A DNA stretch of 27,571 nt from a virus (Duplodnaviria > Heunggongvirae > Uroviricota > Caudoviricetes), in the IMG/VR virus record IMGVR_UViG_2617271072_000003; one strand, given 5' to 3'. The notes under the pieces are model-generated. The model was not told the origin of the DNA, made no database searches, and saw nothing but the letters and a program-made list of their open reading frames with translations. The first letter of the stretch is position 1, and each line of letters opens with the position of its first letter. Position numbers and translations under genes: made by a program. Of this stretch, positions 1,726 to 7,083 are shown piece after piece.

Positions 1726-2664
1726 TCAGCAGGGCGTTTTTCGTTTTACTTTGGTTATAGCATACTTGGTTGTGGCATTTCGCGCAGTGAAAGTTTTTAT
1801 AGTTTTTAGCTCAACAACAAACAAATCTTCTTTTGTAAAACTGATGATTCCGTTTTGAACTTGGTGTATAAACAACTGATCTTCAAAGGTAACAGCATGC
1901 TCTTCGCCTAAATAATCGATTCTCCAACCCTTTGTACCCTCGAAGTTGATCTGTACGAATCTAACATTGACTTCTTCTACAGACTCTTCTTTTTCAAGTA
2001 GTGTGCCTCTAGGCAGCGGTTTGATCTCTTCGGTTTCACTTCCTTCAAGACGAACGACTTCTTCGCCTTCATCATTCAGCACCTTAAATACTGCTCCTTG
2101 TTTGCCGTCTAATGGTGCACGAACTACATTCACAAGGGCATCACGGACTTCTGGATCTGTTACTAACTTAGCCACTGAGTCATGGCAAACAATTTCTTCC
2201 CCTTCAAGCTCAAGAACAGATTCTTCTGTTCCTGCCCGTTTTGTTACCGAAATTACTTTCTTGCTGCCCAGTTGGCGGATTAGTGATAATGCTGGAGCTC
2301 CAATAGTAGCCCCGGCTATCCCTGTTAGGCCAATCACTTTTGCTACGTCGACGGCATGAGGAACAAGCTCCATCATCGTATAGGATACGCCGAGTGATCC
2401 CGCTTCAGCTGGATTAGTAACCATTAACTTAACGGTTTGTTGGCCGTCATTAAGTCTTTTATCAGCTGCTGATATTAAATCTGCCATCGAACCTATGGAA
2501 ATGCTTAATGTTTTGGCATCAATTTTATGCTGTGCTAATTCATTATCCTCTGCATCGTAGAAGATCTGAAAAGAAGTTGTTTTAGTCACTCTTTGCTCGC
2601 TATGTCTTGATTTTTTTCCATAAAATACCTTTTTTGGTGTAAAAAACATTATCGCGGTCCGCAA
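1726..2664 (-). CDS. hypothetical protein (cassette gene A), no family recognised
   Basis: 312-aa ORF from TTG 2664 (ATG at 2649 gives 307 aa); acidic Glu-rich central linker, Gly/Ala-rich segment GLTGIAGATIGAPALSLIRQLG; AT-rich relative to flanking phage genes. Confidence 0.6.
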   Translation of the reverse strand: MRTAIMFFTPKKVFYGKKSRHSEQRVTKTTSFQIFYDAEDNELAQHKIDAKTLSISIGSMADLISAADKRLNDGQQTVKLMVTNPAEAGSLGVSYTMMELVPHAVDVAKVIGLTGIAGATIGAPALSLIRQLGSKKVISVTKRAGTEESVLELEGEEIVCHDSVAKLVTDPEVRDALVNVVRAPLDGKQGAVFKVLNDEGEEVVRLEGSETEEIKPLPRGTLLEKEESVEEVNVRFVQINFEGTKGWRIDYLGEEHAVTFEDQLFIHQVQNGIISFTKEDLFVVELKTIKTFTARNATTKYAITKVKRKTPC

Positions 2665-2713
2665 AAAAATTGCGTTACTGTGTTAAGAGTGATTACTTCG
2701 TCACACAGCTTAA

Positions 2714-2737
2714 ACCCGCCGTCGAGCGGGTTTTTTT
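2714..2737 (+). terminator. intrinsic terminator (+ orientation), candidate tR'-like element
   Basis: acccgc (2714-2719) / loop cgtcga / gcgggt (2726-2731) followed by T7 (2731-2737). Confidence 0.5.
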
Positions 2738-2861
2738 ATACCTGTAAACCTGGTGCAGTACGGTAAACACGCTGGTGGTCGTGAATACTGACTTTTTTAT
2801 CTTGCTGGCTTTTTAGACAAGAGTTATTGGTATGTCATGTTAACCATGAAGGTAAAAAGAC

Positions 2862-3056
2862 ATGCTAAAACAGCAAGATATGACAGAAACGGCGAAAGTT
2901 GTTTTTAATGAATTAAACGGCAAACCGGCAACAGTCGGGGAGATAGCACAAAACACATACCTTTCACGCGAACGCTGTCAGTTAATACTGACCCAGCTGG
3001 TTATGGCGGGGCTGGCAGATTACCAGTTCGGCTGTTACAGACGCCTTCAGCAATGA
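2862..3056 (+). CDS. hypothetical small protein, possible helix-turn-helix
   Basis: 64-aa ORF with ATG and GAAGG about 8 nt upstream; segment ATVGEIAQNTYLSRERCQLILTQLVMAGLAD looks HTH-like; directly upstream of the methyltransferase. Confidence 0.45.
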   Translation: MLKQQDMTETAKVVFNELNGKPATVGEIAQNTYLSRERCQLILTQLVMAGLADYQFGCYRRLQQ

Positions 3057-3205
3057 AGGGCTTTTAATTTGTGAAAATGGGCGGCTGGTGGGTGTTGGTA
3101 GCACCTGCCAGCCATTCGCTCATGCTTACTGGTCACAAGCGAACCATGGCCCACTGCTTTAGCGCAAAAGCAGAGTGAGCCTACCAGAGTTACGCTTACT
3201 GATCC

Positions 3206-4258
3206 ATGAAGAATACTGTAAAAATAAACAGTGTTGATTTAATCAACGCTGATTGCCTGCATTTTATTCAGTCCCTGCCTGATGACTCCATTGATCTGAT
3301 TGTTACCGATCCGCCGTACTTCAAAGTGAAGCCCAACGGCTGGGACAATCAGTGGAAAGGGGACGAAGATTACCTGAAGTGGCTGGACCACTGTCTGGCC
3401 CAGTTCTGGCGGGTACTGAAACCAGCCGGAAGCCTTTACCTGTTCTGTGGACATCGCCTGGCATCTGATATCGAGATCATGATGCGTGAACGTTTCAACG
3501 TTCTTAACCATATCATCTGGGCGAAGCCGTCCGGACGATGGAACGGGTGTAATAAAGAAAGCCTGCGGGCATATTTCCCCGCTACAGAGCGCGTTCTGTT
3601 TGCTGAACATTACCAGGGGCCATATCGCGGCAAAAGTGACGATTATGCGGCAAAAGAAAGGGAACTCAAACAGCACATAATGGCACCGCTGATTTCGTAT
3701 TTCAGGGATGCTCGTGCCGAACTGGGTATAACGGCAAAACAGATTGCCGAAGCCACTGGTAAGAAAAATATGGTTTCCCACTGGTTTGGTGCCAGTCAGT
3801 GGCAGTTGCCGAATGAGGCTGACTACCGGAAGTTGCAGGCACTGTTTTCCCGTATAGCGGCAGAGAAATTTCAGGAACAACAACTGGAACAACCACACCA
3901 CCAGCTGGTGGCATCTTATGATTCACTGAATCGCAAATATTCTGAATTGCTGGATGAGTTTAAAACTCTCCGGCGCTATTTCTCCGTATCAGTTTCCGTG
4001 CCTTATACCGACGTCTGGACGCATAAACCCGTTCAGTTCTACCCGGGTAAACATCCGTGTGAGAAGCCTGCGGATATGCTCCGGCAAATAATCAGTGCCA
4101 GTAGTCGACAAGGCGATCTGGTTGCTGATTTCTTTATGGGATCCGGTTCCACAATAAAAGCAGCAATGGCGCTGGGGCGTCGGGCCTTAGGTGTTGAGCT
4201 TGAGTCAGAGCGGTTTAACCAGACAGTGAAAGAGATAAACGAGCTGGTGGGGAAATAA
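3206..4258 (+). CDS. DNA N6-adenine methyltransferase (beta-class, orphan)
   Basis: 350-aa ORF; catalytic DPPY motif near the N-terminus (IVTDPPYF) and AdoMet-binding FxGxG near the C-terminus (DFFMGSGST); no adjacent restriction endonuclease ORF. Confidence 0.85.
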
Positions 4259-4264
4259 TCTGGT

Positions 4265-4286
4265 GGCCACGTCAGGTGGCCTTTTT
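4265..4286 (+). terminator. intrinsic terminator downstream of the methyltransferase
   Basis: ggccac (4265-4270) / loop gtcag / gtggcc (4276-4281) then TTTTT (4282-4286). Confidence 0.5.
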
Positions 4287-4325
4287 ATTTCCATTACACA
4301 GCACCCGCATCTGCGAGGTGGGGTT

Positions 4326-4541
4326 ATGAAATCCATGGATAAGTTAACAACGGGTGTCGCCTATGGCACCTCAGCAGGTAGTGCCGGGTACTGGTTTTTA
4401 CAGTTGCTCGATAAAGTCACGCCCTCACAGTGGGCGGCAATAGGTGTGCTGGGTAGTCTGGTATTTGGCCTGCTGACGTACCTGACAAACCTTTATTTCA
4501 AGATTAAAGAAGATAAGCGCAAGGCTGCGAGAGGTGAATAA
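4326..4541 (+). CDS. S: class II holin / pinholin (phage 21 S21-like), dual-start motif
   Basis: 71 aa from ATG 4326 within ORF 4263..4541; [26 protein letters not shown]... resembles S21 (recollection); Met1-Lys-Ser-Met4 dual start; GAGGTG upstream. Confidence 0.85.
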
Positions 4542-5642: not shown

Positions 5643-5993
5643 GATAAGAGCCAGTCATTACAAATACCAGGATTTAGCCTCGTATTCGCGGGGCTTTTTA
5701 TTGCCATTACAAAAGCCACTCCCTACAGAGTGGCTTTGATAATGGCTTATACCCTACACGGGATAACTTAACTGATATCCCTTTTAAAGGATAAAGGTAT
5801 TCAAGCCTGACACATCATGCGCTGTATCGTCGCCGTATTCCCGTATTAACAGAGACCGTAGCCCGACGGGGAACTCCTTCTGCGCGAGTGTGCGGGAATA
5901 ATCAAAAACGATGCACACCGGGGTTACCGGGTACACATATTTCATCATGCCAGCGAGTCCGGTTCTGGCACGGAAGAAACCGGACGTTATGAT

Positions 5994-6420
5994 TTAGTGC
6001 GGAAATATTTGTGTAGTGTTCTGAATGTTCTCAGTAAAGAGTAATGAATTATCAAAGGTATAGTAATACCTTTTGTTTTCGTGGATATTTGTAATCCATC
6101 TGAAAACCCCTGCTGTAGCAAGATTTTTCCTGTATTCGTAAAATGATAACTCTCCTGATTTGAATCCTTTTAAGGTGGCTTCTATAAGGCATTTATTTTT
6201 TGAAAATCTTACATTTACAACCTTACCCTGTCCTTTTATTAAAACCGTATTATCGTTTTCAAGAACAAGATGAATATTCTCTGTAGCTAAATAGTAAATG
6301 TAATGTGAGACATTGTGACGTTTTTAGTTCAGAATAAAACCAGTGATAGTTTAAATTATTTCGCACTTTATCGAATATTTGTTTAAAAATGGCAACCTGA
6401 GCCATTGTAGTACCTTCCAT
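5994..6420 (-). pseudogene. AT-rich frameshifted ORF remnant, product unknown
   Basis: Hand-translated minus strand: ATG at 6420 opens a 53-codon frame to a stop at 6259-6261; an adjacent frame is open for 109 codons from 6323 to a stop at 5994-5996 with no ATG. The two frames overlap, consistent with one ~140-codon gene broken by a frameshift. Confidence 0.3.
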
Positions 6421-6461
6421 GTGATATGAGGGGCGTAGTCTGCACGATTATCTAAATTGCT

Positions 6462-6695
6462 TCAATCTGGTCTGATCTGTTTTCTGAGCAATTCAGTAAT
6501 GTCACTCTTTTCTTTGTTTGCTTCAGGAGAAACTCTTTTTTCTGAGCACAGTCTCCGGCGGCAGGCTTCAATGACCCAGGCTGAGAAATTCCCGGACCCT
6601 TTTTGATCAAGAGCGATGTTAATTTGTTCAATCATTTGGTTAGGAAAGCGGATGTTGCGGGTTGTTGTTCTGCGGGTTCTGTTCTTCGTTGACAT
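6462..6695 (-). CDS. small ribbon-helix-helix-like DNA-binding protein (possibly YlcI/DUF3950-like)
   Basis: 77-aa ORF; basic N-terminus then NIRFPNQMIEQINIALDQKGSGNFSAWVIEA, resembling an RHH fold; family assignment is recollection only. Confidence 0.45.
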   Translation of the reverse strand: MSTKNRTRRTTTRNIRFPNQMIEQINIALDQKGSGNFSAWVIEACRRRLCSEKRVSPEANKEKSDITELLRKQIRPD

Positions 6696-6894
6696 GAGGT
6701 TGTCCCGTATTCAGTGTCGCTGATTTGTATTGTCTGAAGTTGTTTTTACGTTAAGTTGATGCAGATCAATTAATACGATATCTGCGTCATAATTGATTAT
6801 TTGACGTGGTTTGATTGCGTAGATGCACGTTGTGACATGTAGATGATAATTATTATCATTTTGCGGGTCCTTTCCGGCGATCCGACAGGTTACG

Positions 6895-6906
6895 GGGCGG
6901 CGACCT
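6895..6906. other. cos: cos site: cosN 12-nt cohesive end GGGCGGCGACCT (cosQ upstream, cosB downstream, roughly 6790-7080)
   Basis: Exact lambda cohesive-end sequence at 6895-6906, preceded by ...CCGACAGGTTACG and followed by CGCGGGTTTTCGCTATTTATGAAAA..., immediately upstream of Nu1. Confidence 0.88.
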
Positions 6907-7083
6907 CGCGGGTTTTCGCTATTTATGAAAAATTTCCGGTTTAAGGCGTTTCCGTTCTTCTTCGTCATAACTTAATGTTTTTATTTAAAATACCCTCTGA
7001 AAAGAAAGGAAACGACAGGTGCTGAAAGCGAGCTTTTTGGCCTCTGTCGTTTCCTTTCTCTGTTTTTGTCCGTGGAATGAACA

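Follow-up and report, generated by a model that had tools for sequence, protein, structure and literature searches.

A covarying leader RNA with two alternative folds lies between a small winged-helix gene and an M.EcoGII-type adenine methyltransferase in a lambdoid prophage

Chromatin footprinting, MadID, and RNA labelling all make wide use of the adenine methyltransferase M.EcoGII, an enzyme whose expression is toxic. How, then, does a phage that carries such a gene keep it under control? In the searchable literature we found no description of native phage control of M.EcoGII, and no RNA or regulator described upstream of M.EcoGII-type enzymes; coverage of that literature was incomplete, and absence from it is no proof. 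Those portions of the published M.EcoGII work that were available to us, which concern the cloned open reading frame (ORF), make no mention of an upstream small ORF or a leader (PMC5778455). The question is posed here by 27,571 nucleotides of DNA from a virus of the Caudoviricetes (IMG/VR record IMGVR_UViG_2617271072_000003; this whole stretch is called the window below), in which a gene of 64 codons is followed by the gene for a 350-residue adenine methyltransferase. As first described, this is an ordinary, already annotated, and very widespread phage cassette, and its enzyme family is well characterised. An earlier note on this DNA placed the two reading frames exactly where we find them (2862-3056, 64 amino acids; 3206-4258, 350 amino acids) and overlooked the highly conserved (0.78), structured spacer of about 150 nucleotides between them. 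New here is a leader RNA whose helices covary and which has two alternative folds; it is linked to a dedicated winged-helix gene, and the pair may plausibly form the native control system of M.EcoGII-type enzymes. The parts of the locus on which the argument turns are these:

2800..2845, + strand: conserved block CTTGCTG-N10-CAGAGTTAY-N-TGTRTGT, 5′ of the small ORF
2862..3056, + strand: predicted winged-helix protein of 64 amino acids (orf47 of phage SfV; PHROG 331; named “TrmB family” by PGAP)
3044..3059, + strand: hairpin across the stop codon of the small ORF, followed in the window by a U-rich tract, called terminator-like
3070..3208, + strand: structured leader RNA of 139 nucleotides, ending at the methyltransferase AUG
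3077-3123, + strand: helix P1, a long irregular hairpin
3115-3121 paired with 3137-3143, + strand: alternative helix P-alt, which excludes the lower P1 stem and inner P2
3131-3140 paired with 3194-3204, + strand: helix P2, whose 3′ strand stops 2 nucleotides 5′ of the AUG
3148-3181, + strand: helix P3, nested in P2
3206..4258, + strand: beta-class N6-adenine DNA methyltransferase of 350 amino acids (SfV orf48; PF01555)
3308-3319, + strand: DPPY motif, amino acids 35-38
about 3683-3916, + strand: predicted target-recognition domain
4127-4150, + strand: AdoMet-binding FxGxG motif, DFFMGSGS, amino acids 308-315

The flanking genes supply the yardstick for the spacer. Compared pairwise over 21 diverged loci, the small ORF has mean identities of 0.76, 0.81, and 0.49 at codon positions 1, 2, and 3, and the methyltransferase 0.77, 0.84, and 0.45; the small ORF, over whose conservation and coding signal the earlier note had left a doubt, is thus a real, selected gene by this codon-position signature. 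In the spacer (3057-3205) the mean pairwise identity of 0.78 is like that of codon positions 1 and 2, against 0.32-0.49 for neutral sequence, and there is no three-nucleotide periodicity. We considered that the spacer might itself be coding, since an AUG at 3077 opens a frame of 33 codons, and rejected this because elsewhere the frame stops after 7-18 codons and single-base insertions and deletions are tolerated.

The conservation is instead that of a folded RNA. Helices drawn with RNAalifold and refined by hand were scored on a structure-blind MAFFT alignment of 35 sequences, where 86.7% of cells are paired against 25-46% in a slid-partner control, 13 pairs have changed on both sides, and the covariation score is 0.219 against at most 0.10 in controls. 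On a model-fitted alignment of 53 distinct sequences the corresponding values are 88.5% against 26-45%, with compensatory change in 13 of the 38 pairs (110 cells) and a score of 0.226; we prefer the MAFFT result because the model-fitted alignment leans towards the model. With a covariance model, each of 88 loci gave exactly one + strand hit, scoring 95-151 bits, and the hit invariably stops at the methyltransferase AUG. That the RNA belongs to the + strand follows from its many G-U pairs and from the model’s scores, 148 bits for this strand and 15 for the other. The changes are easily seen in individual sequences: in loci L024, L052, and L089 the upper P1 stem has been rewritten in other bases with pairing kept, and inner P2 reads AAGC/GCUU in one clade and GGAC/GUUC in the other. 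The inner P2 pair 70:126 differs between clades, G-C in one and A-U in the other. By eye, outer P2 of L089 can be drawn as GGAGAGU/AUUUUCC instead of GGUCA/UGAUC, in a region where the model-fitted alignment is out of register and scores the sequence as unpaired. A candidate pseudoknot between the P1 loop and the CUAYCA joining segment reaches 6-7 base pairs in about half of the sequences and stands at chance level in the rest. The structure of the leader and its covariation are real.

Could the spacer instead be conserved as DNA, as a promoter or operator for the methyltransferase or as a recombination site, with the helices incidental? In its favour, cassettes of the E. coli clade have the sequence CAGAGTTA twice, in the upstream block and again in the leader’s 3′ part, and GATC sites fall within the P2 strands. 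The covariation disfavours it, since 13 pairs change on both sides and yet stay paired and pairing collapses to 26-45% when partners are slid, and, read from the opposite strand, the many G-U pairs turn into A-C mismatches; we regard this explanation as extremely improbable.

Locus L052 (L052:2862-3003) offers a separate observation on the P1 hairpin. Its tip, GAUGCUACUAACAUC, resembles the reverse complement of the usual GUGUUGGUAGCAC, which suggests, from the sequence, a small inversion of the DNA at the palindromic stem.

What might such an RNA do? A first indication is that it has a second fold. The alternative helix P-alt has 78.7% of its cells paired against 6-47% when slid, with a covariation score of 0.292; its pairs 48:72, 49:71, and 51:69 covary, and one pair occurs as U-A, C-G, A-U, and U-G. 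Two mutually exclusive helices, inner P2 and P-alt, thus each have covariation of their own, and the covarying P-alt suggests a switch. Under constrained folding the window’s leader has two complete folds that differ by about 2 kcal/mol; the start region is free in the second, which in locus L013 is the minimum-energy fold. We set aside the second half of the alternative fold, in which the UGGGC/GCCCA pairing never varies and GUGAGC/GCUUAC is found only in the E. coli clade. If most segments of the leader took part in two alternative pairings, this would also account for the invariance of its “unpaired” stretches.

A leader with several helices, highly conserved joining regions, and two mutually exclusive folds, upstream of an enzyme that consumes S-adenosylmethionine (SAM), also invites the idea of a metabolite riboswitch, for SAM or S-adenosylhomocysteine (SAH) for example. 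We found no similarity to the riboswitch families of Rfam 15; over the leader there was no Rfam 15 match of any kind, neither in a scan of 7 kb limited to E≤1 nor in one of 571 nt relaxed to E≤10. The hits that did arise fell on the region of the upstream terminator or on 2839-2918, all far below their gathering scores, and the weak Trp_leader and isrK hits proved to be merely the hairpin of that terminator. Moreover, a divergent clade with a short leader has neither P3 nor the junctions, so that there is no conserved aptamer core, and to our knowledge riboswitches are rare upstream of phage DNA methylases. A riboswitch seems very improbable here.

The second indication is where the leader ends. 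The methyltransferase AUG has no Shine-Dalgarno sequence, and P2 pairs positions -2 to -12 in 89.9% of cells of the model-fitted alignment, with compensatory change in 3 pairs. Opening the region from -15 to +12 is computed to cost 9-15 kcal/mol, which is above shuffled-leader controls in nine out of nine loci. Prediction and covariation together point to an enzyme start region that is sequestered in mRNA structure.

This placement also bears on whether the spacer encodes, or is processed into, a small RNA (sRNA) that acts in trans, its position before the methyltransferase being incidental. Many sRNAs of lambdoid prophages do sit downstream of the late promoter pR′ (PMC4104026), and in the window a hairpin and U-tract, those at 3044..3059, precede the element. 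That hairpin has 82% of its cells paired, and one of its pairs has changed from C-G to U-A in five sequences; as a candidate conserved terminator we set it aside, the slid control being likewise high at 74.5%, and from its sequence it may be a weak terminator or an attenuator. An sRNA would leave unexplained that the element always ends at the methyltransferase AUG, has no terminator of its own, and uses in P2 the bases that abut the start codon. Nor does locus L020 help this case: it looked at first like a leader placed before a different gene and turned out to be a decaying remnant, and it is the sole locus in which the enzyme has been lost. An sRNA in trans is thus quite improbable.

The gene in front of the leader encodes a protein for which AlphaFold2 predicts, at a mean pLDDT of 87, the topology H1-b1-H2-H3-b2-b3 (helices at residues 4-17, 25-32, and 36-48; strands at 52-55 and 58-61). 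Fold searches with this confident model gave only generic winged-helix domains, with TM scores of up to 0.84, the closest matches being the DNA-binding domains of IclR and MarR regulators (0.84 for IclR-type N-terminal domains); also matched were dimerisation domains of O-methyltransferases, the SECIS-RNA-binding domains of SelB, and poxvirus Z-alpha domains. As modelled, the protein is a minimal winged helix, and such a fold implies nucleic-acid binding or dimerisation and nothing more specific. The earlier note had called the ORF HTH-like: it is genuine, conserved, linked to the enzyme, and of nucleic-acid-binding type, whereas the classical helix-turn-helix gives way in the model to a winged helix. 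We also considered a Z-alpha-like function. Z-alpha domains are recognised by an Asn and a Tyr in helix 3 and a Pro-Pro-x-Trp in the wing; the poxvirus E3-type match reaches a TM score of 0.84, but these residues are absent, and we take the match as generic likeness of fold. The Pfam TrmB match behind the automatic name lies below its cut-off (16.6 against 25.6 bits), NCBIfam gave no match, and PHROG 331 is a family of unknown function. There are only two cysteines (C39 and C58). We counted 320 homologues, in Escherichia, Salmonella, Klebsiella, Citrobacter, Buttiauxella, Pantoea, and others, with identities of 77-100% among the matches listed (120 of the 320); many are annotated with spurious N-terminal extensions, and the 64 residues are the conserved core.

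The enzyme itself matches the Pfam family PF01555 (N6_N4_Mtase) at E=8e-42 and 144 bits, against a cut-off of 26.7, over profile positions 1-220, and its motifs stand in beta-class order: DPPY, a central target-recognition domain, FxGxG. The DPPY-type orphan phage N6-adenine methyltransferase of the earlier note is thus borne out. DPPY and DFFMGSGS are invariant in 36 homologues of 76-92% identity, so that the alignment carries no sign of the inactivating motif mutations which that note had allowed for. Identity is 81% across all 350 residues to the enzyme of phage 1720a-02, which has been called “a very similar” relative of M.EcoGII (PMC5778455), about 80.5% over 349 amino acids to M.EcoGII, and about 88.8% to the reconstructed ancestor Anc291. 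M.EcoGII, M.EcoGI, and the 1720a-02 enzyme share with the window’s a length of 349-352 amino acids, the beta-class motif order, full-length identity of about 80-81%, and a prophage setting; the window’s enzyme differs from M.EcoGII and the 1720a-02 enzyme in about 20% of its residues. By its sequence, we assign it to the M.EcoGII family.

That family is unusual in what it modifies. M.EcoGII, a protein of 349 amino acids from a prophage of E. coli O104:H4, methylates adenine in any sequence context, is silent in the lysogen, and slows growth when expressed (PMC5778455), and a homologue in EC958 that is 99% identical to M.EcoGI was predicted from RT-PCR to be inactive there (PMC4659465). M.EcoGII and all six ancestors back to the common ancestor with M.PflMI methylated both DNA and RNA, and no motif was seen in the three enzymes that were examined for site preference, while M.PflMI, which shares that ancestor, is site-specific (PMC11551740). 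The methylation of RNA by M.EcoGII is weaker than that of DNA. M.EcoGII and Anc291 are both sequence-non-specific. The predicted activity of the window’s enzyme is thus adenine methylation independent of sequence, and its target is probably not a motif; a look-up of its motif in REBASE would be uninformative because the family is sequence-non-specific.

The earlier note had also seen an inserted helix-turn-helix in the centre of the enzyme (amino acids 175-194). This segment is no insertion and lies inside the normal beta-class target-recognition domain, which in M.EcoGII spans amino acids 160-237 and has been described as a four-helix bundle with a helix-turn-helix (PMC11551740). Solved structures match only the catalytic and AdoMet halves of our enzyme and not its centre; an AlphaFold2 model made from a shallow alignment (mean pLDDT 65) has helices at 146-173, 177-184, 190-193, 204-223, and 231-254, with pLDDT of about 61-82 at amino acids 160-230, and these agree in place with the published M.EcoGII model.

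When would such a gene be transcribed at all? The cassette lies in the late half of a lambdoid E. coli prophage, whose features around it are these:

60-422: rusA
630-1010: Q antiterminator of 126 amino acids (PF06530)
1034-2664: three minus-strand ORFs between the Q gene and the cassette region
2652..2699, + strand: candidate late promoter/qut block (pR′-like), placed by comparison and including an A-tract
2654-2662: palindrome GCGGTCCGC of that block
2681-2689, + strand: extended -10-like TGnTAAGAG in that block
2712..2739, + strand: upstream intrinsic terminator (stem 2712-2733, 8 base pairs, G+C-rich, T7), annotated in the SfV record
4265..4289, + strand: downstream intrinsic terminator (stem 4265-4281 and T-run) in the gap between the methyltransferase and holin S, annotated in the SfV record

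The two + strand terminators that were said to bracket the cassette were both found by our scan, and both are annotated as rho-independent in the record of SfV. A terminator call alone is weak evidence because the scan of the region gave 11 terminator-like sites where 6.3 were expected; these two have the best stems among the scanned sites. The pR′-like block stands directly 3′ of PF06530-type Q genes in loci L003, L069, L072, L010, and L101, from several genera, with the terminator trailing it by about 25-70 nucleotides, a distance that varies among phages. In phage 1720a-02, whose Q gene is 74% identical to the window’s, the sequence right after the Q stop codon aligns with the window from 2639 onwards; in SfV, whose Q belongs to another family, the block is absent 5′ of the cassette and the sequence there is unrelated. 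Since this promoter-proximal element travels with the type of Q, we read it as the qut/pR′ site, and the first terminator as tR′; by this comparison the upstream terminator probably is the tR′ of a Q-dependent late operon. The candidate module (2652-2739) would yield a transcript of about 45 nucleotides, a counterpart of the lambda 6S RNA.

In lambdoid phages, insertions are known to occur in the slot downstream of pR′ (PMC4104026), and placement of the cassette there fits the published silence of M.EcoGI/II-type genes in lysogens. Other cargo of the slot (stx, tRNAs, sRNAs; PMC4104026) likewise lies between Q/pR′/tR′ and the lysis genes, and like stx the cassette should require Q antitermination for its expression; it differs from this cargo in that it would benefit the phage by protecting DNA and not by conversion of the host, and in bringing a putative post-transcriptional control element of its own. 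Phage 1720a-02 has the cassette between Q on one side and the tRNAs and stx2 on the other, directly 5′ of three tRNA genes. These tRNA genes lie between the methyltransferase and stx2 (L003:5667-5918), while in locus L013 four tRNA genes (L013:4537-4844) lie between the pR′-like block and the first terminator of the cassette. From these arrangements, the cassette and tRNA arrays appear to share a slot of the late operon, in either order.

The earlier note had taken the cassette for a moron. The word fits only loosely, for cargo in the slot downstream of pR′; an autonomous unit is spoken against by the tR′-like terminator and the silence of homologues in lysogens. Of the marks of a moron in the strict sense, the cassette has a downstream terminator of its own (4265-4289) and upstream only the conserved block 2800-2845, without a sigma-70 consensus. 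A fuller form of that reading, an autonomous moron whose site-specific orphan methyltransferase protects the host or marks it epigenetically, with the small ORF as its HTH regulator, would agree with the movement of the terminator-bracketed cassette as a unit among phages with different Q and holin genes, and the block could be a weak promoter for it. Yet a consensus scan found no sigma-70-like promoter from tR′ to the small ORF (2740-2861), the upstream terminator is tied to a Q-linked promoter-like block, in lysogens neither methylation by close homologues nor their transcript was detectable, their expression slows growth, and the family is non-specific where this explanation needs a motif. 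We consider it unlikely.

Taken together, the leader probably acts as a translational gate on a toxic enzyme, layered over termination at tR′. In the lysogen, transcription would stop at tR′ and the enzyme would not be made. After induction, Q-modified RNA polymerase would read through both terminators, and the enzyme would broadly methylate progeny phage DNA and so blunt the restriction of the next host. The leader would be a second lock, in which P2 pairs the bases just 5′ of an AUG without a Shine-Dalgarno sequence, and the near-isoenergetic P-alt fold would free the region 5′ of the AUG. The most likely trans-acting partner would be the winged-helix protein, acting either on the leader, as Com of phage Mu does on mom mRNA, or on the DNA block 2800-2845. 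For this picture, the gene identities, the synteny, and the RNA structure come from the present analysis, and non-specificity, toxicity, and silence in lysogens come from homologues. Its boldest form, in which the leader is a new class of bistable riboregulator that gates translation of M.EcoGII-type enzymes and is flipped by the winged-helix protein on the RNA, we put forward only tentatively.

The best analogy for the cassette would be the com-mom operon of phage Mu. Mu makes Mom, which modifies adenine and is harmful, under the translational control of a small protein, Com, whose gene lies just upstream. Both systems, ours by prediction, pair a small upstream gene with a sequence-promiscuous, adenine-modifying late function that is harmful to the host, and in the proposed gate, as in Mu, translation would be controlled by the mRNA that surrounds the enzyme’s start. 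The Mu-like FluMu, Pnm1, and B3 have a com homologue in front of a methyltransferase gene, and the enzymes of FluMu and Pnm1 (and Hia5) were shown to be non-specific (PMC3299994). The parts are different: there is no homology with Com, a four-cysteine zinc finger where ours would be a winged helix with two cysteines; the enzyme is beta-class as opposed to Mom or an alpha-class enzyme; and the leader has about 140 nucleotides and three helices as opposed to a single hairpin, between genes that do not overlap. Because the parts are unrelated in sequence and fold, we treat com-mom as an analogy and not as a family to which the cassette belongs.

A second known arrangement, the C proteins of type II restriction-modification systems, leads to the most serious rival. 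These too are small, DNA-binding, encoded just upstream in the same unit, and serve to time a dangerous enzyme; they differ in being Xre-type HTH dimers that act on C-boxes to control an endonuclease, whereas the window has a winged helix and no endonuclease. The winged-helix protein might similarly be a DNA-binding transcription factor at 2800-2845, the leader being an element for mRNA stability, processing, or folding. Its closest folds are indeed DNA-binding domains, and the block is well conserved: mean pairwise identity is 0.63, against 0.32 for the spacer that precedes it, distant clades retain it, including loci whose small protein has fallen to 40-60% identity, and in locus L078 it was lost together with the small ORF. 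The leader, for its part, persists unchanged in L078 and L085 without the small ORF. From its sequence the block may be a weak promoter, an operator, or an element of the 5′ untranslated region. It has by inspection no clear dyad symmetry and no consensus promoter, and we saw no C-box-like dyad; a transcription factor leaves the covarying P-alt and the conserved pairing beside the AUG unexplained. We judge this rival possible and less probable than the gate. The E. coli-clade sequence CAGAGTTA mentioned above is an octamer at 3186-3192 of the window, in the 3′ part of the leader, whose copy in the upstream block (2821-2827) reads CAAGAGTTA; the repeat is seen only in E. coli-clade cassettes and may be chance or a shared recognition site.

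Several observations weigh against translational gating by the leader and its protein and against the properties assumed for the enzyme. The small ORF is missing from loci L078 and L085, where leader and enzyme are both present, and from L083, which has also lost two thirds of its leader and retains the enzyme; because these three keep the enzyme without it, the winged-helix protein is accessory and not strictly required. A divergent clade (L090-L104) has the small ORF, the enzyme, and a leader of about 85 nucleotides with P1 only (18-24 bits with model R1), in which the start region is not obviously paired (L094:2906-3009, for example). The excess in opening energy is modest in each locus (z = 0.5-2.2), and the lower P1 stem and the UGGGC/GCCCA pairing vary so little that covariation neither supports nor refutes them. 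The sequences of M.EcoGII and Anc291 were machine-read from a PDF supplement, so that the identities to them are approximate, and non-specificity at 80% identity is an extrapolation from homologues. Finally, a sigma-70 consensus scan called no promoter in the pR′-like block, and the assignment of pR′ therefore stays comparative.

How far does this arrangement reach? From the first terminator to just past the second, the window has 94.7% DNA identity with orf47-orf48 of SfV (NC_003444), with the same gene order and the same two flanking terminators; the homology is limited on the left at window position 2713 and on the right at 4320, and by this match we identify the window’s cassette with that of SfV, the terminator at 4265-4289 being the right end of the mobile cassette. 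SfV differs in its Q, its promoter-proximal region, and its holin, and because its Q family and holin are not those of the window the cassette moves as a unit. Of 5426 complete E. coli genomes, 2052 contain at least 80% of its length, and it also occurs in the cdtI phage, mEp460, phiP27, Stx2c phages, and others; phage 1720a-02 has the same small ORF and leader upstream of its enzyme. Species-representative genomes yielded 21 loci; of the 20 that had enough downstream sequence, 19 have the methyltransferase after the small ORF. In a more distant, Proteus/Morganella-type set of viral loci both genes occur in 76 of 80, with small-ORF identity down to 39-65%. The gap between the genes is constant at about 150 nucleotides across loci, and small ORF, leader, and enzyme co-occur in almost all of them. 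We think it probable that window 2712-4289 is a mobile cargo of lambdoid late operons made of three parts: the winged-helix protein, the 139-nucleotide leader, and the methyltransferase.

The prophage of E. coli 13KWH46, 99.8% identical over window positions 2600-4400, served through its annotation as a proxy for the whole window. As the earlier note had stated, there is no restriction partner: that prophage carries only lambdoid regulatory, lysis, packaging, head, and tail genes there, and no restriction endonuclease gene was found in its late region. The immediate neighbours of the methyltransferase are the winged-helix ORF and the holin, and it is an orphan because no cognate endonuclease gene adjoins it. 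On its 3′ side follow the P21-type holin S, lysozyme, and Rz genes, and then the terminase, head, and tail genes. Upstream of the window, the nin region of the same prophage has a second, Dam-like “phage N-6-adenine-methyltransferase” (L001:5211-5738), and the prophage therefore encodes two unrelated adenine methylases; its ren gene is interrupted by an IS3 element. Between the lysis genes and the terminase small subunit, on the - strand (window 5784-6968), the matching genome has DUF1398 and YlcI/YnfO family genes, which make up another small cargo island of the late region.

The late region has a further site of variation between Q and the pR′-like block. Where 107 nucleotides lie between Q and the terminator in SfV, the window has an insert of 1.6 kb (1011-2640) that separates Q from the block, with ORFs at 1034-1456, 1453-1722, and 1726-2664 on the - strand. 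The largest of these matches the NCBIfam family LAPAL_fam (5.7e-59) and the PADLOC candidate defence family PDC-S42 (4.4e-32). At the same joint, inserts of 1.2-2.6 kb that differ from this one stand in five more loci, which suggests a hot spot of insertion between Q and pR′.

What, then, does this leader mean for the phages that carry it? Were it inert, the locus would be merely a very common, already annotated phage methylase cassette. The position of the cassette directly upstream of the tRNAs and stx2 in Shiga-toxin phages refines the reading of the Q-stx slot. If the proposed control is true, a candidate RNA family would be added to Rfam, and engineered expression would gain a compact natural off-switch. 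Lambdoid phages would then have a non-homologous counterpart of Mu Com-mom, and the small protein would be a rare case of a minimal bacterial winged helix that serves as a translational switch. Leader and small protein together would explain how such an enzyme can be kept safely by thousands of prophages in E. coli, Salmonella, Klebsiella, and Proteus.

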